The notes: generated from the letters alone by a model not told the origin. A stretch of 64,000 nt of DNA from Apostichopus japonicus (GCF_037975245.1 NC_092575.1:8205331-8269330); one strand, 5' to 3'; shown: positions 14,351 through 62,529, numbered from the stretch's first letter. Numbers and translations: made by a program.

Positions 14351-14756
14351 CAGTGTAACTGATGGGTGAGGATAGCAAATGGAGGGACGGGGAATGAGAC
14401 ACAGGTAAATTGGAAATATTGTCCTTCAAAATGGATCAGCTATCAGTTGGCCTAAAAGAAGTCCAATTTTACCCATGCATGCAGTACGCGTGGTGACGAA
14501 CAGGCAGTCAACTTCTCACGATTTCGTCAAATTCAATCCATGTGCATCCACTGTAAAAGGACCTTAACAGAGATCTGTACAAATACAAAACAAGCTATAG
14601 TTTAGTGACTTTTTTTTAGAACACGGAGTGCATTGGCCTAGTAACGCCACTGATTGTCTATCCGATTTGGCCGGTAATTTCCGCTTGGCAGATGAATCCG
14701 GCTTGCAACGAACGAGAGTGTACTTTTGGCAAGCCGTTTGAACATTTCCCTCCCAA

Positions 14757-15065
14757 TTCCACTTAAGTGGAATACATTTTCACTTAAGTGGAATTGAATT
14801 TAACTTAAGTGGAATACATTTCACAATTGCCTCCACGTTAGTGGAATACATTTTGCCAATTTTACTTAAGTGAAATAGAATTTCGCTTGAGCAGAATGCA
14901 ATTCCACTTAAGTGAAATGGAATTTCACTTAAGCGAAATAGAATTGAGCTTAAGTGAAACATGGTGACCAGTTCATGAATTTAGCTTAAATGGAATTTAA
15001 TTTAACTTAAGTGAAATTGAATTCCACTTAAGTGAAATGCATTCCATGCACTTAAATGAATTCCA
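14757..15065. repeat. Satellite-like tandem array of about 20-22 bp, roughly 14 units (cacttaagtggaat.(a/g)aatt(t))
   Basis: Consecutive units cacttaagtggaatacattt / aacttaagtggaatacattt / cacttaagtgaaatggaattt and so on, with unit-to-unit variation. Confidence 0.7.
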
Positions 15066-16194
15066 CTTCGTTAAAAGCGGCTTGCCATATATCACTGCAG
15101 GCCATTCGGCAAAGCAAAAAAAAAAACACAATGGGATATAATGAAGCCCCTATTGGCGAAGACCTCGCAAACTGTAGCATTTTGAGATAATACTTGCTCA
15201 TTTGTTTACGCCCATGCTCGCAATACGTTAAATGAAATATTTAAAATACTCAATGAAATATCAGCATGAAAGTAAATCATCAACCTATAACTCACAATTA
15301 CCTGCAAGAGAGATATGTTATAACAAGAACACATGAACACATTCTCATTCTCTTATAAGCCTGCCATTGCTGCTTTGCTCAAGGATTGCATTATACTTGC
15401 AACGTAAAGGTGGTACTTATAATAATAGCTGACCAATCTCTTGATTTGTAGCTCTATGATTTTAGTTATTAACATGCGGACCGTTACGTGAATTACAACC
15501 GCTTACTTGTAGGGGAGAGGGATGCTATCTCGAAAAAGTGCGTCACTATATATATTTAGCTTCCCCTCTGTCCTCACATGAATGAATATAAAGATATGAT
15601 ATTGTTTATTTGATTGGTGGAACGGGGGTGGGGGGGGGGGGTTGTAATTGAGTGGTCCACACCTACTCCCGAACCCTCCCTTGACGTGACGCCTCTACGC
15701 ATATAGGCTAATCCCAGTGTTTGTTTCATTACAGTATCATCAAATGATGACGGCATCGCCCGGCGAATGTATTACAATTCTATATAAAAGTTTGGTATAC
15801 TGAAATGTCACTTTGACAGCAGATATAGAAAACATCCCTCATTAGACTATCCCCAGCCTCTCACAATCTTTTCTCCCCACATTCGCAGGTCTGCCCTCCT
15901 GGTCCCCCTTCCTTCCTTTCACCTCTGTAACTATATAACCGGGAGCTCCAATTGTTATACTCCTCAGAATGTTTCTCCACAACCAATAATCCTCTCATCA
16001 CTCCTTCCTTTCCATCTTCCTCTCCTTTGTTGTGCCTACTTTGCCTCTATTCATTGCTCATTTGTGGAATTAAACTGTCCGCCTGTGTCTCTTAATGAAT
16101 TCTTACTCTGTTTTGTTTTACACTGTTAACATCTGAATAAAGATTCGTCTGGGATCAAGAAGTCCCTCTTTCTTGTACATATGAAAATTAAAAT

Positions 16195-16198
<4 letters not shown>

Positions 16199-16274
<76 letters not shown>

Positions 16275-18250
16275 GTGCGTATCCAGGGGGGGGGCGTTGG
16301 GGGCGCGCGCCCCCTGGGTAAGGAAAAGAGGAGAGAAAAAAAGAGAAGAAACAAGGGAAAAGGAGGGGGGAAAAAGAAAAGGAGGAGAGGAAGGAAGGGA
16401 AAAGAAAAAGAAAAAAGAGAGAAAAAGGAAAAAAGGAAGGAGTAGAAGATAGCCAAGACCTCGGGAAGAGAAAGAGGAACAGTCATAGTTAAAGCGCTGA
16501 TCACTATTATATACACAGGGTAGCCAGTGACAGATCAAGGATTACGGAGGGGGGTGTGCGCCTCACCCTACCCCTTACACCGACAACTCCATTTTTGACG
16601 TTTCCATTTTTCCTCTCTCACTAATGTATCTATATAAATACTATATATATGGTCTATCATAACGCGTGTGTGTGTGTATGGACGCCTTAAACAATTGTAC
16701 AATTGTGCTATATGGAACCAACTGTGGCTGGTCTTGAACTCGACCGAGTCGTCGGGGTACATGACGCATTTCGGGAAGGGGGCGAACGCCCCCCCCCCCC
16801 CCGAGCAAATTTTCTTTATGACATCGCTAGTAATTTCAAAATAGACATTGCTTAGATGCAACTTTCAAGGCCTGGGAAGTGTCATTTCCAGCGATCTGGG
16901 AGGCATTTTCGGCCAAAATTTTGCTTGTACGCTTCGCGCCAACTCATGGTGGCGCTTCGCTTAGATAGTTTGCCTACAGGCTTCGCCCCTCCCTTGGCAA
17001 TTACTCGCTACACGCCTGTTCGAATTTTTAAAGCAAAGAGCAGATATAACATCATATCAGTGAGCATTGAAATGCATGTTCCACGATGAACAGCCTCAAA
17101 AACTGTCTATGTGTGTAGTTAAAGGCGTAGGAGCCCAATTGGATTTGGGGGCTGTAATGACTTGCCCGAAAAAAAGCCAAAATTTTTCGCGCGCGGAGCG
17201 CGCGTTCAACATATCGATGCCAATATCATATAAGCAAGCATCGGTCATTACAGTGCATAGCATCGTGCACCTTATGGTCCGTGAAAGTTCCACAGTATAC
17301 CGCTGGATGCTAACAACCAAATGTCTTATGTAGATGGAGAAAAATCATACAGATCCATTTATGTCAAAACTCTCTTTTACAAAGGTAATGTCGGCCAAGC
17401 TTACAACTTTATTTTAATTACCAAGGAGATCATTTTTAAGCTATTCATTGCTATTTATTTTTCTTTCAGTAGGTGCCCGAAAAAGATGGGGAAAAATTTG
17501 GTTGAGGGGGGGGGGAGGGGGGCTGCAGCCACCGCCTCCTACGGGACCTACGTCTATGTGTGTAGTGTTCGGTTTCGATATACCTCATATCGGAAATATC
17601 GGCTATTTTTCATTTCCTTCAACCAAGTTTTATAATAGCCGTTATAAGAGGTTGCAATATTTCTACACCAATAAATTAACTGTGTCGGAATTTTCCAAAA
17701 TTTCCTCACCAACATTCTTCATCATACTTTCCTCTACTCGTGCAACTTTGACCTGTCTGTTAGGGGTTCAAGGAGGTTTTTCTATATTGCTTGTCCATAG
17801 ACTGAATTTTGTGCAACATTATGGGTATGTTTTCAAGTGATTTTATTCACGAGAAATTTGAATTTTCAAATTCTCAACAAATAATCGGCTTAAAACCTTG
17901 AAAAGTGGGGCTTTCGGATATTGTGGGCCGTGACGTAGAATCACCTACAAAAGCAATCATCCATAGGACATGCAATCAGGTCGAACATGATGTGTGACTG
18001 GTGACAATCTGCAAAAAGGTTATGGATGGAAAAAACTTTTGGGAAACACTTGGTTCTCAGGCAAAAGTGTACATCTGGTTGGTCATTTCAAGCCCGAGAA
18101 GTGCTATTTCCGGTGATCTGGGGGGTATCAAAACCAGAAATTTTCTTGTACGCTGCGCGCCAACTGATGGTGGCGCTCCGCTTAGATAGTAATTCGCGCC
18201 CCCCGGGTTAGAAAATCCTGGATACGCGCCTGATATATATATATATAAAC
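16199..18250. mobile_element. Composite element of about 2 kb, bounded by inverted repeats (AT)n-CAGGTGCGTATCCAGG-Gn ... Cn-CCTGGATACGCGCCTG-(AT)n. It contains two copies of the GCGCCACCATCGGTTGGCGC hairpin sub-repeat.
   Basis: Left end at 16199-16310: (AT)~32, caggtgcgtatccaggggggggg and the perfect palindrome GGGGGCGCGCGCCCCC. Right end at 18190-18250: gcgccccccgggttagaaaatcctggatacgcgcctg followed by (AT)7. Inside lie a 140-bp poly-purine tract (16315-16460) and sub-repeat copies at 16868-16990 and 18035-18200. Confidence 0.45.
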
Positions 18251-18254
18251 GTTT

Positions 18255-19290
18255 ACTTATTAAGAGAAGACGAATCACATCATTCCATGAAAACAAAAAC
18301 TGTTAAATATTTGACTGCATTGAAACACTATAGTGGAACTATGTGTTGTTTGTGGACCAAAGACAGGCAGTGTCCTTCAAAAGAAAAGCAGGACAACTTG
18401 ATCAGATAACTAAGATTTGATTGAAATATTGCTGATTGTTATCCACTCTTCACATATTTTGTGTACAGTTAACTTATCGATTGTGTTTATATCAGTTTTA
18501 ATTTTAGTTCACCTGTAACCCATAAATATTAAAACTATGATCTGTGAACTGCGGTTATTTTTCAGGGTATTGTTAGCACCCCAAAACATGATCACGATTC
18601 CACCACGCAATTACTTTATCTGTATCAGACTCTGAGATTTTCCCAGGACCCATTTCCTCTTTATCCAGGGGAGAATTTAAAGCAGGTATAAGAATTAACT
18701 TAGATTTGGTGGAATAAGTTTCTTGATTACCGTACTACATCTAGTTAAAGTCTGTAAAGTGGTTTTGTTCGTTTCACTAAATGTCTCTAATGGGTGTTAA
18801 CTGGGTATGTTGGAAGCTTTCATCTCCATAAAGCTTTAGCAATGTCTCTCAAAATTTCAACAAAACTGTATATAAGTTCATCACCCTTCTGGGCATTGCC
18901 TATATAGACTTGCCCTATTTAATGGCCAATTTTACTTTTTTGAAGCTTTTACTGTAAGCTTTACTACGACCAAAGCAATTTAACCTTCATTCACAGACTT
19001 TAATGAAGTTACGCAGTTGGTTATCATTTATTGCTGTAAATCTCTCATTCCGTAGGAAATAACTCTACTGAAAGTTGTGCCTGCCAACTCAGCACTGCGT
19101 CTGCGTGCTATTCTTGACTTTGAAGATGCGAAGAAGGTCCAGGGACTTATATTACACTCCCAGGAAGGAGGTCATTGTTGATATATATATATATATGCCA
19201 GAGGAACCCTGATCAAACCAAACCAGGCCATCAAACTTAGGGCCCGCAAAGAGACCAAGGGCTCCCGGTTCCGCCCACTGGTGCATGACA
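18255..19290 (+). pseudogene. Decayed partial paralog of MVP. It comprises the promoter-proximal 270-bp unit, the 3' end of intron 1 with exon 2 (internal ~100-bp deletion), and exon 3 (internal deletion replaced by (AT)n).
   Basis: 18255-18440 aligns to 28277-28440. 18445-18700 aligns to 30270-30620, with the acceptor and exon-2 ends conserved but the middle missing. 19030-19275 aligns to 30740-30975, with 19190-19200 (AT)n in place of about 60 nt of exon 3. The reading frame is destroyed. Confidence 0.75.
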
Positions 19291-25045: not shown

Positions 25046-25769
25046 TAGTAGCCTAGCTGTAGTTAGTACTCATATACAATATCCCCAGTCGCAAAGCCAG
25101 AAAGATTCTTAGATCTGAGAACTTCAGTTAGAATGTACATGTAGTCTAGCAGAATGACATAGTACTCATATTTGTGGATGTGTGTCAGGCAACTGGTATC
25201 TGGTGTTTTATTAGGCTAGATTGTCTATACTTCAATTCTGGTTAACCAAAATATATATGTCCTTTTAAAGTTTAAGTGAGGTTTTAGTGAGGGGAACACT
25301 GACATGGTAAATTTACTACGAAATGGTGCAACTACACTGTGATTGTAACCTTCACGACAAACCTAAGGCCACCTTACTGTGCTACTTGTCATTGAGACAA
25401 CCTGTTAGGAAACTTTAGTCTCGAACGATAGGACAACCATTACAAATCACTTCTGGGCATGCTTTCCTTAATTATTCTCATGTATATTCATTTTCGCAAT
25501 GAAAATGTGAATGTTCTTTCACTTTGATGCTAGAAATTAGAATGATGTAAAACCTGCACATTTATAAGTACTATTAAGTTACTGTATGGCTTAATGCTAG
25601 GTTGCCTTGATGGTTCATCATGAATTTACAGGTATTTTTTGAAAATACAATTATTCATAGCCACAGAGTTTGTACTTCAATTGTAATCTGCATACTTTCA
25701 TCAGTTGCACATAGTGTGAACCTGTAATATTAATTTATTATGGTGAAGGCGTGGTGTAGTGGTGAGAGT

Positions 25770-27290
25770 GTCCCCAGCGACGTAGCCAGGAATTTGAAAG
25801 GGGGGGAGCACTTTTTGCGATTGATATGGATTTTCAAAGTTGTAGGCACGACTATCTGAGCGGAGCCCCACCATCGGTTGGCGCAGAGCGTACAAGAAAA
25901 TTTTTGGTTTACAAACCCCCCGGATGGCAGGAAACAGCCCTTCCCGAATGTTCATTCTGGTTCCCTGGCCTGTTGCTAACTTGTGAATCCTCATTCAATA
26001 TCACTTTTAAACCGGAAAAACAAACGAGTTAAAATAGTACGTAATTCAATAATACATAATGTATTAAAATTAGCAAGGTACACAAGGGCGGCGAAGCACT
26101 TTTAATCTGGAGAGGGCACCGGCGTCAAAGGGCACTTTGCAGAAATTCTATTGGACTGATGCAGCCTGATATTTAGTACCCTTTATAAATCTTATTGTAT
26201 TATCTTATTTGCGTATACACATCACTCCATCACCCTCCCCCCCCCCCCCCCCCGTCTTAGTAGTCTTACTTTTCAACTTCTGATACTTGTAGATATAAAG
26301 ATAGGCCAGAAATGTCTTTGATACAACCATAGCCAGTAATTGTCTTTGATAAAACTGTAGCTAGTAACTGTTTATCGAAAAGGCTGTTTTGGAACTTGGA
26401 ACGCCGATCGTGACAACAACAGGCAACAAAGTGCTGCAGCTCTATACATATAAAGTCTGTTAATCAACGATAGGCTTATTTGACTGTGGAATGTTCTCAA
26501 CTGAAATTTTATCTGCGTAAACGGGTTCTTAAGTAGATGTTAAAAAACTGACAAGATCGTATCCTAGTCTTTTTCGGCGGGTAGAGTATTGAATGAAACG
26601 GCACGTGATATGAATGACAGCCTAGATGACAGAAGAATAGGTCACCTACTGTAATTTAGCCATTATCTTGCTATGTTCATTTCAATAGTTTTTCCTGTCT
26701 AGACTCTTAAACTCGTCCAGCAAGCTTATGGATTTGAATTATGGGTGTATTAATAAAAAAGATAACTTGGCCAAAAAAAGTGTAGGCCCGGGCCTACAGT
26801 GCTTCATACTGGCTACGCCCCTGATAGTTCTAAATTAGGATTAGATCTCTTACTGAAATATCGCTGACCTAATAAGGTGATTAAGAGTACAAGTTTTATG
26901 TAGAAAAAAGGCACATTTTTAACCTGAGGAAAAGTGGGGGGGGGCACTTGCCCCCTGTGCCCCCCGGTTCCGCCGCCCTTGAAGGTACATGTACAGAGTA
27001 GTCTTACTTTTCAACTTCTGATACTTGTAGATGCAAAGATAGTCCAGAAATGTCTTTGATACAACTGTAGCTAGTAAATGTTTAAGTTAGCCTAATAAGA
27101 GAAGGCGAGAGCTATCCGACGATTGCCATCTGATGCAAATTTCTCAAGTGTTTTCTCAACTGAAATATTATCTGCGTAAACGGGTTCTAAACTACATGTT
27201 AAAAAACTGACAAGATCGGATCCTATAGTCTTTTTCGGCGGGTAGAGTGTTGAATGAAACTATTGTGCTACATACTGGCTACGCCCTAAT
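25770..27290. mobile_element. Composite MITE-like repeat. It is built from ends such as cagcgacgtagccagg...Gn and ...ctggctacgcc, internal TIRs CAAGGGCGGCGAAGCAC ... GGTTCCGCCGCCCTTG (26080-26990), one copy of the GCGCCACC..GGTTGGCGC sub-repeat (25840-26000) and a duplicated ~270-bp block (26230-26600 and 26990-27260).
   Basis: Extensive block-wise similarity to 60040-61600. The TIR pair at 26080-26100 and 26955-26985 is reverse-complementary. Poly-G/poly-C tracts sit at the block junctions. Confidence 0.5.
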
Positions 27291-40202: not shown

Positions 40203-40391
40203 GAGTCAGAGTTGGAACGGCTTACCAGAGCTAGAGAAGCTGAAATCAAATACATCAAGGATCAAAATGAGCTTGAAATAAGCAAGTCCAAGCAGCTGGC
40301 TGAAATTGAAACAGAGAAGTTTAAGAACACAGTGGCAGCAATTGGCTCGGATACCATCAGATCTATTGCAGTAGCTGGACCAGAGATGCAG
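40203..40391 (+). CDS. MVP: MVP coding exon 13 ([63 protein letters not shown])
   Basis: Acceptor ctttgacttcag|ga. The first donor is gatgcag|gtaaga at 40392. Matches human ...[37 protein letters not shown]. The donor is reiterated about 17 times in the downstream minisatellite. Confidence 0.88.
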
Positions 40392-41090
40392 GTAAGAGAC
40401 AAATGTGTGTTGGGTGGACCAGAGATGCAGGTAAGAGACAAATGTGTGTTGGGTGGACCAGAGATGCAGGTAAGAGACAAATGTGTGTTGGGTGGACCAG
40501 AGGGATTCAGGTAAGAGACAAATGTGTGTTGGGTGGACCAGAGATGCAGGTAAGAGACAAATGTGTGTTGGGTGGACCAGAGATGCAGGTAAGAGACAAA
40601 TGTGTGTTGGGTGGACTAGAGATGCAGGTAAGAGACAAATGTATGTTGGGTGGACCAGAGATGCAGGTAAGAGGCAAATGTGTGTTGGGTGGACCAGAGA
40701 TGCAGGTAAGAGACAAATGTGTGTTGGGTGGACCAGAGATGCAGGTAAGAGACAAATGTGTGTTGGGTGGACCAGAGGGATTCAGGTAAGAGACAAATGT
40801 GTGTTGGGTGGACCAGAGATGCAGGTAAGAGACAAATGTGTGTTGGGTGGACCAGAGATGCAGGTAAGAGACAAATGTGTGTTGGGTGGACTAGAGATGC
40901 AGGTAAGAGACAAATGTATGTTGGGTGGACCAGAGATGCAGGTAAGAGGCAAATGTGTGTTGGGTGGACCAGAGATGCAGGTAAGAGGCAAATGTGTGTT
41001 GGGTGGACCAGAGATGCAGGTAAGAGACAAATGTGTGTTGGGTGGACTAGAGATGCAGGTAAGAGGCAAATGTATGTTGGGTGTTTACAA
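40392..41090 (+). repeat. Minisatellite of about 17.7 units of 39/40 bp (gtaagagacaaatgtgtgttgggtggaccagagatgcag). Each unit duplicates the last 15 nt of MVP exon 13 plus the GTAAGA 5' splice site. It is organised into a roughly 275-bp higher-order repeat.
   Basis: Units 1 and 2 are exact 39-mers and are in frame. Variant units (ggaccagagggattcag 40-mers at 40502-40510 and 40777-40785; ggactagag; aaatgtatg; gtaagaggc) recur with a period of about 275 bp. The array occupies more than half of intron 13. Confidence 0.9.
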
Positions 41091-41670: not shown

Positions 41671-41832
41671 GCTAAACTGCTTCAGTCACTTGGTATTCAG
41701 TCAACCCTGATTACTGATGGCACCAGTCCTATCAACTTGTTCAATACAGCTAATGGTTTGCTCGGGGCCTTGGAACCTCCGAAGAAACGATCTAAAGGTC
41801 ATAAAGACGATGACTCCAGCGATGATGAATAG
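41671..41832 (+). CDS. MVP: MVP terminal coding exon ([53 protein letters not shown])
   Basis: Acceptor cggttttttttttgtcag|gc. Matches human [35 protein letters not shown] stop at 41830-41832. A possible ATTAAA polyA signal lies near 42008. Confidence 0.92.
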
Positions 41833-47399: not shown

Positions 47400-47945
47400 A
47401 CTCAAATATTACAAAATTCACCAAAGAGATATCACCCTTGAGAGCATTAATGAGAGTATGATCGACACTGAGTAGGTTAAGATAGAATAAGTTATTTTTA
47501 GCATCATCTTTCAGATCATTAATGAGAGTGTGATGGACACTGAGTAGGCTTGGTGAATTAAGATAGAATAATTAATACTAGCATCATCTTTTACATCATT
47601 AGTGAGAGTATGATGGACACTGAGTAGGTTAAAATAGAATAATTAATGCTAGCATCATCTTTCAGAGCATTAATGAGAGTATGATGGACACTGAATTGGC
47701 TTGGTTTTAATTAAGATAGAATAAGTTATTCTAGCATCATCTTTCAAATCATTAGTGAGAGTATGATGGACACTGAGTAGGTTAAAATAGAATAAGTTAT
47801 TCTAGCATCATCTTTCAGAGCATTAATGAGAGTATGATGGACACTGATTACTCTTGGTTTTAATTAAGATAGAATAAGTTATTCTAGCATCATCCTTCAG
47901 ATCATTAATGAGAATATGATGGACACAGAGTAGGCTTGGTGAATT
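47400..47945. repeat. Tandem repeat of about 90 bp, roughly 6 units (catcatctttcagatcattaatgagagtatgatggacactgagtaggcttggt.aattaagatagaataagttattctag)
   Basis: Six consecutive alignable units lie in the convergent intergenic region between MVP and the minus-strand gene. Confidence 0.7.
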
Positions 47946-48702: not shown

Positions 48703-48767
48703 TCATTCAGAGACAATGAAGACACTGTCTGGGTCATCCTGACTTTGCTTCATAGTGGCTTCCCAAT
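48703..48767 (-). CDS. Candidate terminal coding exon of a minus-strand low-complexity protein gene (..DWEATMKQSQDDPDSVFIVSE*)
   Basis: Minus-strand acceptor tttgtctttcag|at. It starts with 2 nt, which complete the phase-1 end of the exon at 49507. The open frame runs to TGA (+48703-48705). The call rests on phase consistency only. Confidence 0.35.
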
Positions 48768-49506
48768 CTGAAAGACAAATGGCAAAAAATCTGATATGTA
48801 GCAAAACATTCAAATCTGAAAAAATAGAAGTGATATTGTACGCATTATGCAGAACTTTAAAGAACTTCTATGACGTTTACAACAGGGTTGTACAGGAAAT
48901 AAAAGGTGGTGAAATAATGGGCAGGACTTAACGAGAAACAACATCCATGTAATAATAGACATACGTGGGAATGTTGGGAAATAATGTAAAATAATGTTTA
49001 CTTTAGTTCTCCAATCTAGTATAAACCTTCTTTGCATTCCAGCATGATACTGTAGGTACAGTAGGCAGACGTTCTACACTGCAGCTACATGAAAGCTGTG
49101 CCGCAAACATCAATTCACTTTAAAAGTTCTGAAATTTTAAACAATTTCACTAAGTCACATTTCACCAGTCCATCTCCTGCTTTCCAGAAAAAAGTATAAC
49201 ATACCATCGACACTGGAAGTTTAATTTAGTTTTTGACATATAAAATGTTCCTTTCAATCTAAGCTGTCACAATTGAATTTAACAATTAACCTTCCTGTCA
49301 CTCCAACAATGCAGTGGTAGTGATGGAGTTTAGTAGTTCAATATTAAAGCCATTGAACATTTTGGAGGGTGGAATTACAAAAAGAATATTTTAAGGACAT
49401 ACAAATGACAAGGTGGTAATGTACTTGTTTTTGCAGCAAGGAGCTAAGGGAAAACAAGGAAAGGGTGGTTTACCTATCCTTTAAGGGATTAAGGAAGCAC
49501 TCTTAC

Positions 49507-51537
49507 CTTTGAGTAGCATCTCTGTTACTTCACTGAGGTTAAACATCTTTGTTTTCAAGCTAGTACTGCTTATATCAAGTTTTAACTTCTTACTTGACAA
49601 CAGCTTTATCTCCACAGTATTATCTGCAACTAAATCTCTTTCTGTCATGTCTTGTCCTTGCTTTGAATTGGCAACATGTCCCTGGTCTAATGCATGATTC
49701 CCGCTTTTGTTTGCTGCCTGTATCGTCTGTGCTTCGTCTGTTTCCGGATAATCGTTGATCAATGCACCTTGAACCACAACAGCAGTTGGCAGCTTAGTTT
49801 CTTTGCTTCTAGTGAATGACTCAGGTCGTCCGTATTCATCTAAGTCCAATATGCCATCCTCACTCACAATTAAGCTCCCAAACCAAATTGGGTTACTAAG
49901 AAGAACACCAGAATTTGAAGGCAGTGATTGGCCACTGGTAGTACCCGCTTCAAGTTTTTCTCTCTCTGTGTGAGCCACTTTGACTTTGCAGACTGTCTCA
50001 ACATCAAGAGTGGTACCTGCCTTTTGATTATGCAGAGATAAATTCAAGTTGTAACTTTCAGCTTTTGTTTGGCCAAACTCTATAGTTCCTATTTTACCAT
50101 CCTTTCCACATACATCCTGTGAACTAGACTTAACAGTATCTTTACCAGATAAATTGAATCCTTCTATTGTACTCTTCTCATTCTTCTGCACAGTCCTTAT
50201 ACTCTGGTCATCCCTTGTTGATGCTGTAGTTGTTGTTGTTGTATCATGAGTGGTACCCAGACTTTGCTTCACCCGTCCAGCATATGAGATTTTAGTGCAT
50301 TCAAGGTTTAGGTATTGCACAGATTTTGCGTGATGCTCTGAAGATCCTTGCCTCTTATTAGTACTGGAAGCTACATAAGAGGTCAAATTTGGAAAATTAA
50401 GATCAAACTTTCGAGTGGGACTGACTTCTAAATTCATAGCTGCAGATATGGAACTAGACGGGGGGACGTTGGTGGTCAATTCCTTTGATTCTTGTTGGCT
50501 AACAGTTCTATCAACTGTGTCACTTTTAAGATCACCGATGGAATTGATTTTTGGTTTGCTATTGCTTTGACTACTCAATGGTGCTGTAATTCCCTCAAGA
50601 TTATTAGACGGCTCCTTCTCTTCTTCTTCCTTCATTAATTGCACGTGGCCAGTCCCTTGGATGCTAGCTTTTAACCGGCTGGCGTATGACAACCCTCCTT
50701 GTTTCTTTTGTTCACAATTGTTCTCATCGCTCTCCAGAGAATCTCTTCTAGAGGATGCTGTTGTGGTGGTTGTTGTAGTACTGACTTGTTCTTCTGCCTC
50801 ATTCGTTCCCAGTCTCCTCCGACTGTTTGTATATTTACACATTTCTTTAGGAAGGCTACTAGACTTTCTCAAGTCCCAGGCAGAGTCTTTGCTTCGAGCA
50901 AAGTTAGAGTTAGGTGAATCATCCATATAAAAGTTTTTGGAAAAAGATCGCGGAAAACCAAAGTGACTAGCACCTTTCTCTTTGCGTCTGGATTTTCGAT
51001 ATTTGACAATGTTAAAGCCCCCGTGTTCTTCATCATTTTCGCCAGGGTCTGACATAGCGGCTCTACAGTCTGCTTCGCTTTCATCCTTGCCATAGTTGGT
51101 TGCATCATCTATAGCTCTATCTATAGCTCTCCGACGCAGTGATGCAAACACATCTTCTTCTAGCTCCTCCTCCTGCTGCTGCTCTTCATTTTCTTCATCT
51201 TTTGTGAGCTGCCTCAATCCTCCTATTTCATTTTCAGGAGCTGACCATTTCCTTCCTTCTGAAGATGTTTCCTCGTTTCCTTTTTTCTTTCTTGCTACAG
51301 GTTTGTTATTCTTAACAGGTTCAACTGCTTTGGTTCTATTACCTTTATTATCTTTTGAGTGTTTTGCTTTTTGCCCTGGGAAGACTTTGCCATCATTTTC
51401 ACCAGAGAGATTTTCTCGCTCAGAGCTGGACTCTGCTGATGTCTTTCTCTTGGTATTGGTGTCTGCTGATGAGGGTGCAGTCAGATCATTAGGAGATCTG
51501 GCTTCTTCTCCTTCAGTGGTGCTTTCAGTGCCATTGT
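49507..51537 (-). CDS. Large internal coding exon, about 2.03 kb, of a Ser/Thr/Glu/Lys-rich low-complexity (likely intrinsically disordered) protein
   Basis: A 693-codon open frame on the minus strand. Acceptor cctttttttccccatcttag|ac (+51538-51556). The consensus donor caaag|gtaaga (+49501-49506) leaves phase 1. Composition is heavily biased (poly-T, acidic and basic runs). No homolog recognised. Confidence 0.6.
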
Positions 51538-52919
51538 CTAAGATGGGGAAAAAAAGGTTCATACATCAATTTATAGTGCCACTAAAATACCATCTCAAGA
51601 TGACCACAAAAAGTCCACATAATGAAGAAATCTTTGCTGAAAACTACTGTTCTTTCATGTTAAGGCCAGCCTAACAACTGAAAACACTTTTGGCAATGTT
51701 GATGCTGAAGTGACTTTTGCAAAGTGACTTGCAATATCTATCATGGGTACAGTGAATAATTATCCAGTATCATATAGCAAAATGCTTATCAACAAAACAG
51801 GGTCAAATCAGGGAGTTGTTACATAACAACTCCCTGGTCAAATAGCAAGAAGAACATCATGCATAAATGTGTGAACTAGTGTAACCTTTATTAACCAAAC
51901 TTGAGATATTGCTGCTCATAACAATGCCCTCTTGCACATCATGGAAGCTAATACGCAACTTCCATACCATTATTTCCTAAGAGGAAGGTTTTCAAGAGGT
52001 TTTAGTTGAGCTACGCTTTGAACAGAAGTGACCCATGGTCACTTATCACACTTTCACATTACTTCAAACATGTACAGTAACCTGTTCCAAGCTTGCCCAA
52101 CATCCAGTAAGAAACAAGAATGGCAATTGGATTAATAGTAATGCCTTGCCAAATTTTTAATGAGAACATTCAACAGTGACACGGCACACAGGATTTTAAG
52201 TGTTGATCATCACAAGATTTGCAATGTCCTAGCAATAACACGGACATAACTATCAAGTTCATTCATGCTTTACATAAGACATGTGTGTTTCCAAGATTTG
52301 CAGATTTTGACATCTGTTTACCTTAAATGACCTTTGACCCTCACAGCAAGTGATAGGAAACTTGTACTCAGGAAGTTAATTCAGAGTTAAATATCAGTTT
52401 AACAAGGTTTAGAGAGTCTGATCTATTTTGACCTCAAATGACCTTTGACCTGCAATATCAACAAGGTTCGTAATCTCACTACTGTCGACAAGGAATCAAA
52501 ACACAAGCTGCAACTGATAGAATGCATCCACTACATTGGAATATACTCCAAATGCATCCATTGAGAAACAGACATTTGCTTGTGAGCAGACAAACAATCT
52601 TGATCAATTTCTGCTATCGATGGGTAATACTAGAACTGGCTATCATACCTAGGACAAGTGTGACTCTTCTCGTAGCCAACCCTTGAAAGTGAAGATTACA
52701 AATAGGGTGCAAAAACTGCCCAAGAGATACAGTACTTATTAGACTAAAAACATGCTTCAGTACTTATATTCTCTTTTACCTTACCCAAGTGTGTTTGTTT
52801 GTTGAGACAGGTAGGAAAGGAATAAAGCAAAAGTAACAAAATGGAAGATGAAATTGATTAAAAATAAGTCCCTTCTAAGCAGGAGTGGCAATAAGACATC
52901 ATAAATGCTGGCGGCATAC

Positions 52920-53925
52920 CTTGTTTAGTTTTTTTCTTCTTTTTTCTCTTCTTCTTTCTCGTACCATCACCAACACTGGAGTCATCCCTTGTCACTTTAT
53001 TTGAAGATGTCTCATGCAAGCTGCGGCAGGAACCATAGTTTGTTTGGAAACCATTATCAAAATGAAAAGATGGGCCTGTCGGAGACACTGCTGGACTGCT
53101 ATGAGCATACACATCCTCTAGCTCACGTTCTTTCTGTTGTGCTCCATGCCTCTTCAATGGCGATTTATTCCCCCTATCAGTTCTGAGCTGACCTAAGATA
53201 GGTGTGGCAGCATTGACCTCAAATTCTGTAACCTGGCTAGAATTGATGAGTTCAGGAGCAGGGCAGTTTTTGACGTCGGTACTTTTGGGTTTAAGTATAA
53301 GTGATGCAGACTTCTTCAATAGAATTTCAGGATGAATTGGACCAACATCTTCTGTACTCACTTTTGTTTCTGAATTATGTTTATTTGCTTTCTCTCTAAG
53401 CATATTAGTTTTCCCTTTCATTACATTGTTTGTTGTTTCCTTAGTTTTTGTCAGAGGACCAAACTGTATTCCATCATCAACCTCTTGTTGACCCTTTTGG
53501 CCAGCAACTCCACTGGCCTTACTCTCAGACATGGTGCTATCCGGTTTAGGTGCGTCTTCATCCACAATATATCTTTTCTGTGATTCAGAAAATTGACCTT
53601 TTGGCACATTGTTAGTTATGGTGTTTACTGCACCTAGGTCTGTTTCATGAGCCTGCGAAGCACTGTCATCTTTTTCATCTGTTTTCAACGTCATTGCTGG
53701 TGTAATTTGAGTGGACCCCAAATGTGGCGACAAGTTGTGGTTTCTATCTTTTGATCCAAACCCTTTTTCGTTTTTTTCTGGTGCGTCAAACGTACCATAA
53801 ACTCTGACATTATGAAAGACGTCCGATATGAGGTTTTGCCCAGCCTGTAGGTCAGCTCTTAGAGTTTCTAGGTCCACAGTAGATCTTTCTGAAAGTTCAC
53901 GTGCTCTTTCTTTGATTTCATCCAC
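52920..53925 (-). CDS. Upstream coding exon, about 1.0 kb, of the same minus-strand gene (VDEIKERARELSERSTVDLETLRADLQAGQN... then a disordered S/T/K-rich region ending GTRKKKRKKKKKTKQ)
   Basis: Acceptor tctcttattttctctatcaaag|gtg (+53926-53947), with phase-0 entry. Donor caag|gtatgc (+52914-52919) leaves phase 1, and the exon at 49507-51537 starts with the 2 nt completing that codon (g+ac = Asp). The poly-Lys tract is NLS-like. Confidence 0.55.
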
Positions 53926-56900
53926 CTTTGATAGAGAAAATAAGAGAAACATTTTTTGCAGGTAAACTCCAATGTGCTGGCTACAATGCTATTTTAATGA
54001 AAGTAGTGGCCTTACCTGAATTTGAGGTAAAGTTATTTCATTGATACATATAGTTATCTATCACATAATTAAGGAATTAATAATAATAATAATAATAAAT
54101 TATAACTAATAAATAATTATCAAATCTATTTGGTCTTCATTTCGAACTTCCAAAAAAGAAGTGTAAAGACCTTCCAAAGACAATCAAAACAACTGTAAAA
54201 ATGTTTCCTAGGAGTCTAGAACAGCAGACTAGCAACACTTAGAATATTTTTGCAATAATCTGAATATGATATTTTCACACCATTTTTACCAAATGTTGAA
54301 GAAACACTTTCAAGCAAATTGCATACATGTAGATTACACCAAACTGAGTTTCACAAAACTTCAAAATAATTTTGATTCACAAAGATCAAAATTTCAAAAC
54401 CATATATCTCAAATTATGTTCAGTAGAAAAAATGTCAAAGGGCTAATGATGCATTGCAAATTTCTCATTGTCTCTTCATGACATGTTTTACCAGCAAAGC
54501 AGGACACTAGTCTTAATACCACTCCATGGTTCTTGTACTGACAAAGGTGAATCCACTTGCAAAGTGTGAAGTTCTTCCAAGATTTGCTTTTTAAATTAGG
54601 CTTCAAGAGTTCACAATATTTCAGATTTTAACCTCTGTTGGCCTAAAATGAACTCTGACCATGTATTCACTAGATTCCTCTAAACACTATGGTGGATATA
54701 CATAAAGTTCAAACACCAGGTACTTTTCCTGAGTTTATTCAGGTTTCACAGATAAGGCATCACACATACAAACACATGTTGTGTTAAGCCCCACCACTCA
54801 TTAATATTCATGATGGAACCAAAAACAATAGGGCACATCTTCACATCATGGGGCATCTACCTACCAAGTATGACATTGTTTCAACTTGCGTTTGTTGAGA
54901 TATATTGTTTACAAGCTAGCCATCACATACACACTTTCATACACACATGCCAGCACAAATTCAAAGATTACCAATGTCAAAGGTAGCTTTCAATCCTAAA
55001 GTTGCCTAATTCTGTGTTTGTTTACACCTTCTACCCAATAGAAATCAGCCCAATTATGCAAAAATAAGAACAGTTCATATGTTGGCCATTGGGCTGTAAT
55101 GGGATTGTCATTTGAGCAACTTAGAGGCATGTTGCTGTTCAAAACATGGAATTCAGAAAGGTAGTTTTTTTAATTGTAACAGCATCCAAGTACTTTTCTG
55201 GTAAAGTTTCCTTATTTTCATGTCATAGTACTTGAAGGAAAAGTACAGTAGTGACAAAAAATTGTTTTCCTCATTTATAACATGACTGTTCCCAGACATG
55301 ACTTTTAAACTAGATTATTTCCCAAACGAAGTAAGGTTTTTCTTATCTGTTTGGGGTGTTGTTCTTCACAAAGATCTGTCATATAAGCTACAGATGATGG
55401 TTGGGTTTGCGTCTTCTTCAATTGTTTTCTTAGTCAGTCACCCCATACCGATTGAAATTCCAGAGAGTGTGATACAGTAAGTTTTATCCTCCTTGTTTTA
55501 TAGGAGATTAGTGTATGTCAGATGATTGGCTAGTTCATCCCATTTCTCAAAATTTGAGGTATTTATTGGCTACATGCCAGTGCAAAATTAATGTCGCTGT
55601 GGTATTGATTCAATGAAATTGCAAGTGGGAATTTGATTTTTAGCCAGTAAATTTTTATGCACTGGTTAGTTTTAGCAATTGGCTAAACTTGTGAAATTTT
55701 AGACATACGAAAATGAATTGAACTTTTCAACTCTCTAATCCTTTGTGTTACCCATCCCCCTTCTGTAGCCTATGCTAGGCCTACTAAACTACTGTAGACT
55801 AGGCCTAGTGTAGGTCAAGTCATGTCTAGCCTACAGTAAGGCAAGTGCACAGTACTGGGAATGGCTATTTTTTTCTGTAAAAATCTCCTTGGATTTGTGA
55901 TCCAACTCCATTCAAAAATGAATGGTTTTGGAAGATAATGATGGCAGAAGCTGCAAAACACAATTCACAAAAATTTGTCAATGTCACATGTCAAACAAGA
56001 AACTGATACACCATTTCTTGTGATTAAAATGGCACTTCCAGTTCAAACACAAGTAGTCAATAACTGACAAAATGACTGAACGTCGGTGAAATAACATACT
56101 GTTGGTGACTCAAGTTGTTGACTCACTCAATTCACATCAGTTTGTGAATTGCAACTTGACCTTTTAAAGTATTCATGACGTTCAGATGAATGGTATGACA
56201 AAGCTGAACATCTGCCTGTTGTTTGAACTAGGCGAATTATGCAAGTAACAATATTGCTTCAAAAGACCCTGGCACAATTTACACTTGCAGTAAACAATGC
56301 ATGATAGTGTGTATTAGAGGCTCTACAAGGACCTGCTGTGCCAGTTCTTTCTTAATCTTGTGTATTATTGTTATTAGGTTTTTCAACATAGCATTATCCA
56401 CGGTTAACGTGTACCACTTTGACTCCTTCACTTGAAGTCTGAGGTTTCTGATTGCAAACAAAAAATAAGCTAACAGAAAAGTTAGCAGTGGCTTAACAAT
56501 GGCTGCAGAAAATGGATGATTGTACCTACAGTATATCTATAGCCTTTCAGTGTCTTTTATTGATTATCATTAAAAACCTGCTGATATAACTGTGTAAATA
56601 CATGTATGATTTCCTACAGAAGCTTCACATACAGTATATTCACTGTATTGCACTTTGCATTATTGTTTCTTTTCTTTTGTTTTAGCTAATTTCTATTTGA
56701 CATTCCTGAACAGACTTTTACAAACATAAACCAAGTTATAGAACAGTTCTATTAAATAAAGTTTCCATTATAATTAATCACTGGTGGTTGGAATGGTTGA
56801 CAAAGTTAGAGATATTTGAAGTCATTTCTTCACTTTGATATGTAAATTGTTTTTCTGCCACGGAATAATTTATCCAGTATTGCATAGCAAAATTTGATGC

Positions 56901-59900
56901 AAAATGGGCAAATCACTATACATGTGCGAACATGTTATAGGTATAGTGGTGTTTGTTGCCCAGTAACAATAGTATTTGATAAGAGACAAAAATCAGACTT
57001 CAAAACTTCTACACAAAATTTGAACTCCGAGTACTATGTAGTACACCGCAAAGGTAAATAAAGGAAAATAGATGCATGATATTGAGAAAAGTGCACTGTA
57101 CGTGCATTTGTAATCTCTCTCCCCTACAAAATGGGTGATAAATATTTTTGAGACATTAAACATTCAATGTTACAGCACTTGACTGACGACTGGACTTTAA
57201 ACTTGGCCTCAAAGCCTTGACCCCAGGGACTTGAGACTTGATTCAAATGACTTATTGAAAGCACTGATATTACACGTTTCAGTCTGAAAACAATAACCTA
57301 ATCATATAACACTTCTTTATCACAGTTAGAACACCATGACTTAGTGTGGTCATTATTATATAGGCTAAGCACTTTCACCCAAATGCACTGGCCACACAAC
57401 TAGAGAAATTTCACACATTCCTCTGTGACTCCATCATCAAAACAGGAAAAAAATGCAGTTACAGGGAGTGTAATACTTTCATGGCTAGTAAAAAGCAACC
57501 TTAGTTTATATTCCTAGCCTAGGCCTACAGTAGGATAAAGATAAAGCTTTGATCTATAGATGGTAACTTTGGTCACATCGTTCTCATATTGTTGTGTATA
57601 GTTGGTAAACACTTCACCAATCGGATTATCTAAGTACCCATGAATGGTACCCATGTACCCAACGTACCCATGCCTAGGTCTGATTCGTGTCTTGTCTAGC
57701 AAGTGGTCCCTATTTCCTTCAAGTTCAACCTGTGAGTGTGAGTTTATGCTTAGATTGAGATATATGAATTAAACCTTAGAATGTAAAAAACTGCAACCAG
57801 AGGGAAGAAACCATAAAGACCACTTTGATAGTTTTTGGCAGGCATTTAAAACTAAGAGAACATTAAAATTAAAATTAAAAAAAAAATTAAAATTGCTACA
57901 ATAATGATTTATATGTGAAAGGGATATATGCCACATTTCCCCACCTACACGATTTGCCTTGTTCTCATTGTGTGCCGGTGAATAAGTCCTTTGTTGATAT
58001 CTTTTGCCAAATTGTAGCATGGTGGGCTCATAATTGACGCACTTAAGGATTTGATCAACGATGTCTATCAAGGAAAAATCCAAATCACTCAACTGTTTAT
58101 GTGTTTCATATGTGTAGTTCCTCAGAAATGTTATGATCTCAAAATATTTAAGGTTCTGTGCTTATGCACCGTACAATTGAGCAGAATTTGACCACAAAAT
58201 GTCTACCGTGTCAAGTTCTTTCATACCCCTAGGCCTAGGCCTAAATTGACACATTTGGCGATAAGCTAACTGTAGTGTAGGCCTTAGTATACATCCACTG
58301 ACTTTAGATGCTTTTTGCTATGCTCTGAGCATCTAAGCTAAGGTCCCAGAATGTAGTGTTATCATATTGAGGTAATGTTGGTTATTTTTTGGGTCTAAGA
58401 TTCCCAAATGCCCAAAAAATGTGCAGACCTGGGGGGAGGGTGTTAAAAGCTTAAAATACACCATAATTTGGTCAGCAAATAGCTGAAATGGATTCAAACT
58501 GACTGCAAAAAGTTTCGGTGGCCTGCTGTATCGTTGCTAGTATTAATTAAAGGTACTTAATTACTAGGGTGCGTCAATTATGAAGCCTTTACTATACAAG
58601 TGATCAGAATTGGGACCAATTACTTAGCTTACGCTAAGTTAGTTTGCACATAAATTTTAAGAGTAAATTAAAGTCTAACGTTTCTTGTGTTTGTATTGTT
58701 GGACCTGGCCTAGACTAGGCCTTAACCTGTGTGGTTTGACCTTGTGCTTAACCTAACACTACGACTACCAGACTACAGTAGCCTACGCTAGGCCTAGGCT
58801 AACCCTAGACGAGGTCCTAGGCTACAACACAGTTGACACAAACAGCCGAAACCGTTTGTTCATATTCCCACTTTTGTCTTGCCCAAATGAGGTGGAATAG
58901 AGCTATCGTAAATCTGCAAGAACTTCTCGGTGTCGTCTTCTTTCAGTGCTAATGCTAACGTTAGAGATACTGACAAAAGCTCACTTTCTTTGCAAGTTTG
59001 ATTGTTGTCACCGCCAGCAAACTCGCTGGCCATGATCATTTACCACTCATTCTTGTGCAAATTACACCATACCAAATACGTTATGTTACACACTTAATGT
59101 AGTGCAACGGTGTATGGTTTGAATATGCGCGTACATATGTCCAATATGTACTGCGTACGGTACATCATGTATGCCAACAGCGATTTTGTGTGCCTAGCTA
59201 GCCTAACCAGTACCAAATTTCGTAGCGTATGTGTGTAAATTCATATGCATGGCATGTAGGCTATACATATACATGTCACTACAAATTTCTGTAGTTGTTA
59301 TGGTCGAACACGCATGCGTAGAACTTGACGACGAAAACCTAAGTTGACGGAAAGCTGCTCAAATTTGTACCGGTTGCACAAACTTAGAGAAATCCACCTC
59401 AAATGAAGCACGAACAAACGGCCTGACGGTTCCGACAAATGAATGTGCCCAGGCCACATACCGTTTCGCTGATAAGGATGAGCATTGCAAATGAAAGGTC
59501 ACGTGAATGGAATGTTACCAGACGTCCAACAATATTATGCTGATCCAAATCAATCCCCTTTCTCAACCACCGCCCCCCCCCCCCTCCTCCCCCAAACTGT
59601 AGCCTACCTTTACTCTGCAGTTGTGCCGTTGATAATAAAACAGAGAGTTCCGCAGCTTATTACCCTAAGCGTAAGGTGATCATGAATATTAAAGGGGTTG
59701 TGCTGGGTTCAGTTGATGGCTTAAAATTATCTGCATCTTCAGGTCCAAACTACATCTCAAAGCATTTTGTTATAGTGAAGAATCGTATTTATCTCAATTG
59801 TTGACATTCTGACATTGCATCTGGCAACTACATGAAAGTGAAAATGTCATTATGGCAATTGTTCTCAAGACTGAGAAATTAACAACCAAGCAAAAGTTCC

Positions 59901-60039: not shown

Positions 60040-61600
60040 GTTGAGTCAGTTAACTGCAGTGGCGTAGCTAGGATTTTTTGAGTGGGGGGCCATGGGGGGG
60101 CTGTTCTTTCTTGTGGGGGGGCCGGGTTACTATCTGAGCGGAGCGCCACCTTGGTTGGCGCGGAGCGTACAGAGAAAATTTGAGATTTCAGCACCCCCCA
60201 GATCGCAGGAGATGGCACCTGTGAGGCAAAATAGCAACCAAAAAGATGTGCAACTTTGGTGACAGAAATGCAAAAAAAAAATTTTTCTCTTTCATGCTGA
60301 CTGGCCTTGCCAACTCAGCCAGACTTTTAACTTGAGTGAAGTTGGCATCAAAGGCGTACGGGACCATTTCAGTTTGGGGGGCAGAACTTTTTGTGCCCGA
60401 AAGTCCCGTAACACTATCTAAGCGGAGCGCCACCATCGGTTGGCGCGTAGCGAACAAGAAAATTTTTGGCACACAATGCCTCTCAGATTGCCGGAAACGG
60501 CACTTCTGAGGCCTTGCAAGTTGCATCTAAACATTCTTTATTTTATAATCTCACGTTTTAGAAATTTACAGTTCCCCAAAAATTTGGTAAATTAGAAGAA
60601 GAAAAAATGGTAACATCACTTTAAAGGGGGAAAATGGGACAGTATATTTTTTAAGCTGCTATATTTAGTTACCTTATTTATTATTTTAACACAGTACTCA
60701 GCTACCTCCAGAAAAAACATTGTTCAACGACACGTAGGCGGGATAATGTTGCTGTGTCGGGTGAGACTGCAATTTGTCTCACAAAAAAGTATAAAATATA
60801 ACAAAGAATATGATAAACCTGTACTTCTAGGCTTGTAGACACTCCCCCCCCCCACCATCCATGAAAAAGAAAATGTTTCTTTTATACACTCATGTCGGGG
60901 ATATCCAGGTCAAGGGCGGCGGAAGCACTTTTAATCTGGGGGGGGGGGGCACCGACATCAAAGGGCACTTTGCAGAAATTCGATTAGAATGATGCAGCGT
61001 TATATTCAGTACCCTTTATAACTCTTATTGTATTATCTTATTTGTGTATACACATCACTCCATCAACGTCCCCCCCCCACCCCCTCAAGGAAAATATGCA
61101 TACTAGCACTGCAATATCCAATGCGCAAATTGGGAAACAAGGAACAAGTTTTCTTTTGAGACAAAATGAGGTGAAATCATGCTAGTTGCTAACGTAGGAA
61201 TCTTCCGAATTAGTTTTAGTTTTTTTCTTGTTAATATCTTAACAAATTTTTTCCATTCGAAAATGCTTTGAGTTTGACTCACAGAAATTCGTTAAAAGTC
61301 ACGGGCTTAGCCAGGATTTGCAAAGTTGTATGCACGGCTATCTGAGCGGAGCGCCACCATCGGTTGGCGCGGAGCGTACTTTAAGAAAATTTTTGGTTTT
61401 ACAAACCCCTCAGACGGCCGGAAACGGCCTTTCCTGAGTGTTCATTCTGGTTCCCTGGCCTCTTGCTAACTTGAGGCACCTCAATTTTTATGTAGAAAAA
61501 AGGCACATTTCTAACCTGAGGAAAAGTGGGGGAGGGGCACGTGCCCCCTTTTTCCCCCCGGTTCCACCGCCCTTGGTTCAGGTATACACTTTACTAGTTA
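60040..61600. mobile_element. Second large copy of the composite MITE-like repeat family. It has ends cagtggcgtagctagg...Gn, two GCGCCACC..GGTTGGCGC sub-repeats (60100-60235, 60400-60530), TIRs GTCAAGGGCGGCGGAAGCAC (60920) ... GGTTCCACCGCCCTTG (61570) and an internal sub-repeat copy (61300-61480).
   Basis: Block-wise similarity to 25770-27000 (for example 60890-61090 matches 26070-26260, and 61490-61580 matches 26900-26985). Confidence 0.5.
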
Positions 61601-61756
61601 GAAGAAAAAAAATTGATCGTGCAAAAAGCGTGGTAGCCCAGATGAACTGCGCTTACGGTGGTGTTACACGGAAATATTCGGGCATCATGATGCTAAATAA
61701 AGAAAATCATGGAATTGTCGGGCAAAAATTTGAAAAAGATTCGGGCAAGCTACTGC

Positions 61757-61757
61757 A

Positions 61758-61853
<96 letters not shown>

Positions 61854-61880
61854 CATATACATATATATATATATATTTCC
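61757..61880. repeat. (TA)n / (TATACA)n compound microsatellite
   Basis: atatatat... with interspersed acatatacatatac units. A palindromic flank (gaaattcgggca ... tgcccgaatttc) lies at 61890-61990. Confidence 0.8.
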
Positions 61881-62529
61881 AGAGGACAAGAAATTCGGGC
61901 AAAAGTCCTGAAAAATTCGGGCAGCCTAAGAGGAGAAAATTTTTTTTTTTTCTCCTCTTAGGCTGCCCGAATTTTTCAGGACTTTTGCCCGAATTTCTTG
62001 TCCTCTGGAAATTTAGGGGGCTGTCTGCCCCCCCCCCCTGCACCCCCGCCTCGTACGCCTATGTTTGGCATCATTTGTTGTTTCAAGGTGTCAAGGCCTT
62101 TCTCCCAACTCAAACCCCTGTGGGCTACCGGTAGGTTTGCAGGAAATGCCCACATGTGGACTTAAATAGCATTAGAGGAAGGGGATGGAAGACTAACACG
62201 CATCGATGTTTCGGTAATGGTCCACATTGGTGGCTCGGTGCTAATTAGGCCATTTATTGGGTTTCTTGAGGCAGCTGTCATCAGAATCTGGGTTTTTGTG
62301 CCAATCGATGACCGATAACATGTATTGGTAGATATCGATATCGCGCAGCACATGCACAAGGTTCGTGGTGTATGGTCGCAACCGTCGCATCGACCATTGC
62401 CATGCCATGCTGTATGACCATTCTCATGATTACTACAGATATTGTATTATTCTTATTCTGCCAGATGCAAACGAGAAAATTGTGTAACTCTATTTCCCAA
62501 ATTATTGAACAAAAAATATTAGTGAATCC

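Follow-up and report, generated by a model that had tools for sequence, protein, structure and literature searches.

The 64,000-nt stretch of the Apostichopus japonicus genome analysed here (GCF_037975245.1 NC_092575.1:8205331-8269330; hereafter the window) carries the MVP gene on its plus strand (Pfam Vault, 7e-33) and, converging on it from the minus strand, a gene for a large low-complexity protein, which is the subject of this work. The convergent arrangement is as the initial annotation had described it. The last MVP exon ends at TAG 41830-41832, and the two stop codons are 6870 nt apart across a spacer that holds several tandem arrays. The three minus-strand exons assembled in that annotation proved exact in strand, boundaries, phases and AG/GT signals: spliced together, 52920-53925, 49507-51537 and 48703-48767 give an uninterrupted frame of 3102 nt, with 1033 codons followed by TGA. 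The translated product contains the peptide then quoted (VDEIKERARELSERSTVDLETLRADLQ) and has the composition that had been claimed for it (S 11.5%, K 9.5%, E 8.9%, T 8.6%), including T-runs, the K/R tract and RKKKRKKKKKTKQ. The junctions between exons 2 and 4 are in phases 1/1, their acceptors consisting of a polypyrimidine tract followed by AG and their donors of GTA (carets mark splice junctions throughout): exon 2 has the acceptor TCTATCAAAG^GTGGAT and the donor AACAAG^GTATGC, exon 3 the acceptor CCCCATCTTAG^ACAATG and the donor TCAAAG^GTAAGA, and the last exon the acceptor GTCTTTCAG^ATTGGG. The gene had also been expected to extend 5' of position 53925, and a tblastn search with the first 53 residues of HOLleu_10653, a relative from Holothuria leucospilota, located the missing 5' coding exon about 5 kb upstream, at 58872-59033, with the peptide MASEFAGGDNNQ...IYDSSIPPHLGKTK. 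Its ATG has favourable flanking bases (A at -3, G at +4), with an in-frame TAA three codons 5'. The full coding sequence comprises four exons (59033..48703, minus strand) and 1087 codons, encoding 1087 amino acids (aa; Table 1), and we regard this four-exon model as almost certainly correct. Neither AATAAA nor ATTAAA occurs within 800 nt of the stop codon. A satellite at 47445-47934 (153 bp, with a 71/82-bp sub-period, in about three copies) lies 770-1260 nt 3' of the stop codon and holds the only ATTAAA hexamers near the 3' end of the gene (47864, 47711).

Table 1. Features of the minus-strand gene and of the antisense frame, in window coordinates
Feature	Position	Strand	Description and basis
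Coding exon 1 (new)	58872..59033	-	ATG 59033-59031, 54 codons, MASEFAGGDNNQTCKESELLSVSLTLALALKEDDTEKFLQIYDSSIPPHLGKTK; tblastn, splicing and translation
Exon 1 donor		-	AAA^GTGGGA, phase 0; phase-0 intron also in H. leucospilota, Patiria and Branchiostoma
In-frame stop 5' of ATG	59040-59042	-	TAA; sequence read
Alternative ATG, weak context	59037-59039	-	Sequence read
Coding exon 2	52920..53925	-	aa 55-389 and first base of D390
Coding exon 3	49507..51537	-	2031 nt, aa 390-1066 and first base of D1067
Last exon, coding part	48703..48767	-	DWEATMKQSQDDPDSVFIVSE, TGA 48703-48705
N-terminal four-helix domain, first part	58872..59006	-	aa 10-54 (helices 10-31, 35-45, start of 52-66); predicted local distance difference test (pLDDT) 87-93
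N-terminal four-helix domain, second part	53797..53925	-	aa 55-97, VDEIKERARELS...; AlphaFold full-length and domain-only models
K-run	52921..52956	-	KKKRKKKKKTKQ (aa 378-389), then phase-1 intron and DNGTESTTEGEE; candidate nuclear localization signal (NLS)
Second basic cluster	50975..51019	-	GFNIVKYRKSRRKEK (aa 563-577); sequence
LSYASRLKASI motif	50660..50692	-	aa 672-682, short predicted helix; conserved in all family members
Second motif copy, SYAGRVKQSL	50258..50287	-	aa 807-816; family alignment, NUFIP2-motif match P 0.004
Aromatic-FG motif	49859..49894	-	NPIWFGSLIVSE (aa 938-949); conserved in holothurians, predicted strands 940-955
C-terminal motif, first half	49508..49543	-	FNLSEVTEMLLK (aa 1055-1066), ends at phase-1 intron; hhalign, intron identity, helix
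Antisense open reading frame (ORF), 192 aa	51096..51674	+	Rejected

The closest database relative is HOLleu_10653 (P0002), an annotated 1101-aa protein of H. leucospilota (E 3.5e-141, 85% of protein length aligned), with which the complete 1087-aa product aligns end to end at 40% identity. All three introns recur in the H. leucospilota locus, with residue and phase unchanged (K^V phase 0, KP-G^DNG phase 1, LLK^DWE phase 1). Differences between the two coding sequences amount to 0.44, 0.38 and 0.64 at codon positions 1, 2 and 3, and the excess at the third position, together with the alignment of the orthologues, argues that the reading frames are more than chance; saturation at synonymous sites ruled out an estimate of the ratio of nonsynonymous to synonymous substitution rates. 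Transcript evidence comes from another holothurian, in which a 1913-nt contig (L007/P0003, run SRR32120647; 51% identical) reads EVTEMLLRDWEATLKESRDFPESVCFAND uninterrupted to the stop codon. Since this contig has LLR^DWE without an intron at the homologous exon 3/4 junction, it represents a spliced transcript that uses that junction. A Logan contig from run SRR23999949 (L001), 99.1% identical over exon 3, runs into both flanking introns and is therefore genomic DNA of the same species. It differs from the window by about nine substitutions, five of which alter an amino acid (over 677 codons), and it is short of 12 nt at 51100-51160, a single RAID repeat unit within RRRAIDRAIDDA. The five amino acid changes and the indel suggest that constraint is relaxed in the disordered part of the protein. 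The same changes are what could be cited for the locus not being a functional gene at all, the exons being chance ORFs or a pseudogene, or the plus-strand ORF at 51096-51674 being the expressed product. This reading is hardly credible, given a 1087-codon frame that is intact over four exons and conserved in three other genomes in which the introns are the same, and a spliced transcript in a related species. The antisense ORF, which the initial annotation had named as a possible refutation of its model, was rejected because stop codons interrupt its H. leucospilota equivalent, and the model stands. The gene is a real, ordinary and complete protein-coding gene, and its modest interest lies in its probable evolutionary link.

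The structure of the product was predicted with AlphaFold2 on a six-sequence family alignment, which left most of it disordered: pLDDT was below 50 for 871 of the 1087 residues (80%). The N-terminal helices (10-31, 35-45, 52-66 and 70-97) were predicted with a pLDDT of about 90 and were recovered in a domain-only model. The N-proximal stretch earlier called coiled-coil-like is helical in the prediction, forming helices 3-4 of a confidently predicted four-helix domain. This N-terminal domain is the part most widely conserved across the family; a Foldseek search of its model against the PDB gave no match below E=1, and neither did a PDB sequence search with the family profile give a match. A C-terminal helix (1057-1077) was predicted with a pLDDT of 85, and other semi-confident elements are an acidic/basic helix (505-536), a short helix (674-683) and strands (940-955, 1030-1044). 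Exon 2 completes the N-terminal helical domain and also encodes the K-run and an extended disordered segment, and the product also carries acidic serine clusters. Conservation between the two holothurians sits in short islands, namely FLQIYDSS; the K-run with DNGTESTTEGEE; SAESSSERENLSGE; DCRAAMSDPGEND; RKSSSLPKEMC...LGTNEAEE.STTTTTTTASSRRDSLESDEN; SYASRLK; SSQSNSKPKI; KFDLNFPNLT; YAGRVKQSL; NPIWFGSLIVSE; and EMLLKDWE. The starfish equivalent of the aromatic-FG island NPIWFGSLIVSE reads DITFGSVIV.

No homologue had been recognised in the initial annotation, and here sensitive profile searches found relatives in holothurians, starfish and amphioxus. A first word-indexed search gave only two matches because low-complexity words swamped the index, and a profile search with the N-terminal domain returned starfish first-exon fragments only. 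The exhaustive HMMER profile search, which covered 1.84 billion representatives, returned only six proteins: the two holothurian sequences P0001 and P0002, P0003, P0004 and the sequences from Patiria and Branchiostoma. The starfish member is Patiria miniata XP_038058980.1 (LOC119730243, 'uncharacterized', 1311 aa), and the amphioxus member is Branchiostoma lanceolatum XP_066292381.1 (760 aa; BraLan name Hypp371), which RefSeq calls 'nucleolar and coiled-body phosphoprotein 1-like'. P0004 is a 228-aa N-terminal fragment from a metagenome contig (2518 nt) of the Joint Genome Institute; it has the family N-terminal domain, with no break where the phase-0 intron would lie, and may extend the range of the family. 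HOLleu_10653, LOC119730243 and XP_066292381.1 match the window gene in the order of domain and motifs and in intron positions and phases, introns 1-3 falling at the same residues in starfish and amphioxus, with one additional C-terminal intron in Branchiostoma. Their identity to the window protein is 40% (HOLleu_10653), 20% (Patiria) and 20% (Branchiostoma). Full-length members have in common the N-terminal domain, the K-run, (F/L/M)(S/T)YAS(K/R)(L/V)K, YAGR(V/L)K, an FGS/PGS motif and the C-terminal motif (F/Y)N..E(V/A)...(L/Y)(L/Y)..(W)(E/R)..T; the pattern of the N-terminal domain, LA..L...D...F...YD...P......(V/L)..IK..AR.L, is present in the window protein along with the other family features. 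Annotations of the three relatives are hypothetical or uncharacterised, or misleadingly NOLC1-like. The last of these would make the window protein a Nopp140/NOLC1-like nucleolar phosphoprotein, as its alternating basic and acidic serine-rich tracts, its K-run and the RefSeq name of the amphioxus relative might imply. We consider this very improbable, because none of the four full-length members has a Pfam match above cutoff, to a NOLC1-type domain (LisH, SRP40-type C-terminal) or otherwise, and no NOLC1-like protein appeared in the exhaustive profile search; the name reflects compositional similarity. Pfam gave no family at E<=1 for the window protein and none at E<=10 for the relatives P0002, P0005 and P0006.

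The SYAS motif and the C-terminus of the window protein were reminiscent of human NUFIP2, and a sequence that we took to be human NUFIP2 was used, as bait only, in a search that returned 411 proteins. The best 120 of these 411 were all vertebrate NUFIP2 with the Pfam domain PF15293, the top one being 96% identical to the bait. When the family was compared by hhalign with an alignment of 15 NUFIP2 sequences, from mammals to chimaera together with teleosts, there was a single match, joining the extreme C-terminus of one to the extreme C-terminus of the other (score 35.2, P 0.0048) and pairing SLKTKMFNLSEVTEMLLKDWEATMKQSQDDPDSVFIV with NDSWGSFDLRAAIVYHTKEMESVWNLQKQDPKRIITY. The NUFIP2 C-terminal motif SFDLRAAVxYHTKEMExIWNLQKQDPKRVITY was thereby recovered. 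None of 200 templates whose columns had been shuffled inside 30-column windows reached this score (mean best 17.3, standard deviation 2.8, maximum 27.1), and the reversed template scored 18.1; the C-terminal block alone gave a weaker match (P 0.04). The SYAS block (LSYASRLKASI) matched the invariant NUFIP2 stretch ISYASKVKENL with an hhalign probability of 75% (P 2.6e-5), and the YAGR block matched the same stretch with P 0.004. The NUFIP2 core motif ISYASKVKENLNK, invariant in the alignment, is thus found in the family, about 11 residues of the 157-aa Roquin/FMRP fragment being recognisable. NPIWFGSLIVSE is colinear with NUFIP2 WGLSFINEP, although hhalign does not pair the two. The window protein presents the SYAS motif, the aromatic-FG motif and the C-terminal helix in the order of NUFIP2.

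Gene structure provides evidence that is independent of these sequence scores. NUFIP2 in Labeo rohita and Callorhinchus milii has three introns, all in phase 1. Intron 1 follows a K-run and G (KKKKKKKKKA-G^FEELNG in chimaera), so that cartilaginous-fish NUFIP2, KKKKKKKKKAG^FEELNGDAGSEDE, has a phase-1 intron at the place equivalent to the K-run of the window gene; the phase-1 intron after the K-run in H. leucospilota, KNKP-G^DNGAESTTEGEE, parallels it likewise. Introns 2 and 3 of NUFIP2, at YHTK^EME and LQKQ^DP, bound a 33-nt penultimate coding exon. Within the motif aligned by hhalign, K1066 is paired with the K of HTK and D1067 with the following E, and the last intron of the window gene falls between the first and second bases of the D1067 codon, exactly where the NUFIP2 intron interrupts the E codon (MLLK^DWE versus YHTK^EME). 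Amphioxus has both C-terminal introns, YLYR^EWEQTFKQCQE^DPTKV, which enclose a micro-exon of 33 nt in phases 1/1 (EWEQTFKQCQE versus EMEYILNLQKQ), followed by DP..V as in NUFIP2. All three phase-1 introns of NUFIP2 are therefore present at aligned positions in amphioxus, and the first two in the window gene, H. leucospilota and Patiria. On this evidence the last intron would have disappeared in echinoderms, and vertebrates would no longer have the region that exons 1-2 encode in the invertebrate gene.

Chromosomal neighbourhood was also considered. The amphioxus gene lies head to head, 367 bp apart, with a gene for a 222-aa CDP-alcohol phosphatidyltransferase, the exons of which match what we take to be the human CDIPT sequence at 33-58% identity; the spacing suggests a shared bidirectional promoter. 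In the B. lanceolatum sequence L008, the family member and CDIPT are at 5464-9634 versus 10001-18934. No CDIPT was found in the 64,000-nt window, where MVP is the neighbour. Human MVP, CDIPT, SEZ6L2, KCTD13, TAOK2 and ALDOA lie together in the 16p11.2 copy number variant (PMC3484866, PMC11211608), and human NUFIP2 lies in a 1.69-Mb 17q11.2 interval with SEZ6 and TAOK1 (PMC4886423). The SEZ6/SEZ6L2 and TAOK1/TAOK2 pairs suggest that 16p11.2 and 17q11.2 are paralogous segments, in which case an ancestral MVP-CDIPT-NUFIP2 neighbourhood would explain the arrangements in the window, in amphioxus and in human.

Several results nonetheless weigh against homology with NUFIP2. Even at permissive E-values, PF15293 finds neither the window protein nor its three full-length relatives, and membership of this Pfam family formally fails for the window protein. 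The HMMER comparison of the family profile with NUFIP2 was not significant, and in the opposite direction the NUFIP2 hidden Markov model did not score the family clearly above shuffled decoys (2000 decoys). The hhalign probability for the whole-family comparison was only 7%, and most block comparisons were not significant: the K-run, NLS, RKSSS, WFGS and N-terminal blocks had no significant hhalign match to NUFIP2, and the best placement of the basic cluster GFNIVKYRKSRRKEK, on the NUFIP2 stretch ...ESGYTTPKKRKARRNSA, had a P of 0.6 and hence provides no evidence. None of the 120 NUFIP2 sequences examined (the best 120 of 411) has the N-terminal domain, where conservation within the family is highest, and there is no MVP within 10 kb of the H. 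leucospilota gene. All this would be accommodated by a lineage-restricted (ambulacrarian and cephalochordate) disordered protein that is unrelated to NUFIP2, its motifs being convergent and the coincidences of intron and synteny due to chance. Such an origin is unlikely, though its probability is not negligible, since it has to account for two colinear motif matches, one of them at the extreme C-terminus in both families; for a score that no shuffled template attained; for an intron of identical position and phase within the aligned motif, with the same 33-nt micro-exon in amphioxus; and for an MVP and CDIPT linkage that fits the chromosomal neighbourhood of NUFIP2. We conclude that the family is probably a remote homologue of vertebrate NUFIP2, a judgement held at the level of a good probability because both PF15293 and plain HMMER are blind to the relationship. 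Our literature searches found no described invertebrate relatives of NUFIP2. What is new here is probably an invertebrate NUFIP2, hitherto unannotated and equipped with an additional N-terminal domain; gene structure and synteny lend support, and standard domain searches miss the family.

Published work on NUFIP2 indicates what such a protein might do. Residues 255-411 of NUFIP2, which contain ISYASKVKENL, bind Roquin and the N-terminus of FMRP in a mutually exclusive manner (PMC5775257). NUFIP2 is a core stress-granule protein that binds G3BP1 and GABARAP directly, and the primer used to construct its delta-NLS form removes GYTTPKKRKARR (PMC9533235). F511 is reportedly needed for binding to the NTF2L domain of G3BP1 (bioRxiv 10.1101/2025.11.30.691455); in 695-aa NUFIP2 sequences this residue is the F of the invariant WGLSFINEP. 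By analogy, the window protein would be a mostly disordered, multivalent adaptor of cytoplasmic ribonucleoprotein granules, in which the SYAS region would bind FMRP/FXR or Roquin, the aromatic-FG motif NPIWFGSLIVSE, a candidate NTF2L-binding site, would engage G3BP, and the basic clusters would drive nucleo-cytoplasmic shuttling. The N-terminal domain missing from vertebrate NUFIP2 would add a further interaction. These specific partner assignments (FMRP/FXR, Roquin, G3BP) are tentative, and we would not be surprised to see them revised.

Other features of the window were noted alongside. In MVP, a 39-bp tandem repeat of 18 copies (40376-41083, plus strand) has its start inside the penultimate coding exon, at the 3' end of that exon (...AVAGPEMQ^gtaagag). 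The last 16 exon bases and the GT donor recur in every unit, so that CAGGTAAGAG is present 18 times in tandem; the first few units are in frame, and use of a downstream donor would add 13-aa repeats to MVP. An intact, intronless 89-aa ORF on the minus strand (11538-11807) encodes dynein light chain LC8 (Pfam Dynein_light, E 1.3e-42) and could be a single-exon gene or a retrocopy. An (AT)60 microsatellite at 61757-61876 (region 61753-62015) is directly followed by a near-perfect hairpin, with 68-nt arms (61872-61939 and 61948-62015) that are 99% complementary around an 8-nt loop, possibly a foldback element or one resembling a miniature inverted-repeat transposable element. Three ORF fragments (16856-17089, plus strand; 25701-25994 and 60188-60526, minus strand) share ...RQ(P/L)MV(A/G)LR(L/S)DS... 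and G/P-rich neighbours, and are probably copies of one interspersed repeat family; they have no Pfam match, and one of them lies about 1.2 kb upstream of exon 1. A scan of the locus for bacterial promoters and terminators is irrelevant for this eukaryotic sequence.

The family is most likely the invertebrate-deuterostome counterpart of NUFIP2 (82-FIP), diverged past the reach of Pfam. It would follow, with somewhat less assurance than we attach to the homology itself, that NUFIP2 is not a vertebrate invention but descends from an older deuterostome gene, which possessed both an FGDF-like motif and a four-helix domain at its N-terminus and stood beside MVP and CDIPT before the vertebrate genome duplications, and that vertebrates lost the domain and kept the paralogue copy at 17q11.2. 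If so, NUFIP2 gains invertebrate models, and the residues that matter would be the SYASK(V/L)K core, the aromatic-G motif and the C-terminal helix. Comparison over about 550 million years would leave, of a disordered protein of some 700 aa, four or five short conserved elements, a pair of them coinciding with experimentally mapped partner-binding regions, and would reveal an ancestral N-terminal domain in a protein for which we know of no recognised domains. For annotation, this identity would replace 'hypothetical protein' and the misleading 'NOLC1-like' label.

Compared with known systems, the aromatic-FG motif is nearest to the FGDF-type motifs that bind the NTF2L domain of G3BP in alphavirus nsP3, USP10, Caprin-1 and UBAP2L. 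The family differs from these in having Ser and Leu/Val in place of Asp and Phe, and AlphaFold puts the segment in weakly predicted beta strands. Nevertheless, the holothurian IWFGSLIV and the starfish ITFGSVIV resemble (L/I)TFGDF by eye, in that an aromatic residue is followed by Gly, with hydrophobic neighbours and disordered surroundings. In relation to NUFIP2, the window protein fails the Pfam model, is 1.6 times longer, and adds the N-terminal four-helix domain and the 335-aa disordered exon 2. Its SYA motif is duplicated, it has WFGS instead of WGLSF, the invariant NUFIP2 stretch KEDSWTLFKPPPVFPVDNSSAKIVPK is not recognisable in it, and echinoderms are without the last intron. In spite of this, both proteins are long and mostly disordered, with a K-rich tract after which come G and a phase-1 intron, an (I/L)SYAS(K/R)(V/L)K core and, nearer the C-terminus, a conserved aromatic hydrophobic motif that is colinear but unpaired by hhalign. 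Both also have a C-terminal F(D/N)L...K^(E/D)(M/W)E...Q(D)P..V, in which a phase-1 intron interrupts the same residue. Both genes likewise open with a small coding exon, have a giant one in the middle and close with a tiny one, and their chromosomal linkage is consistent with descent from one ancestral segment.

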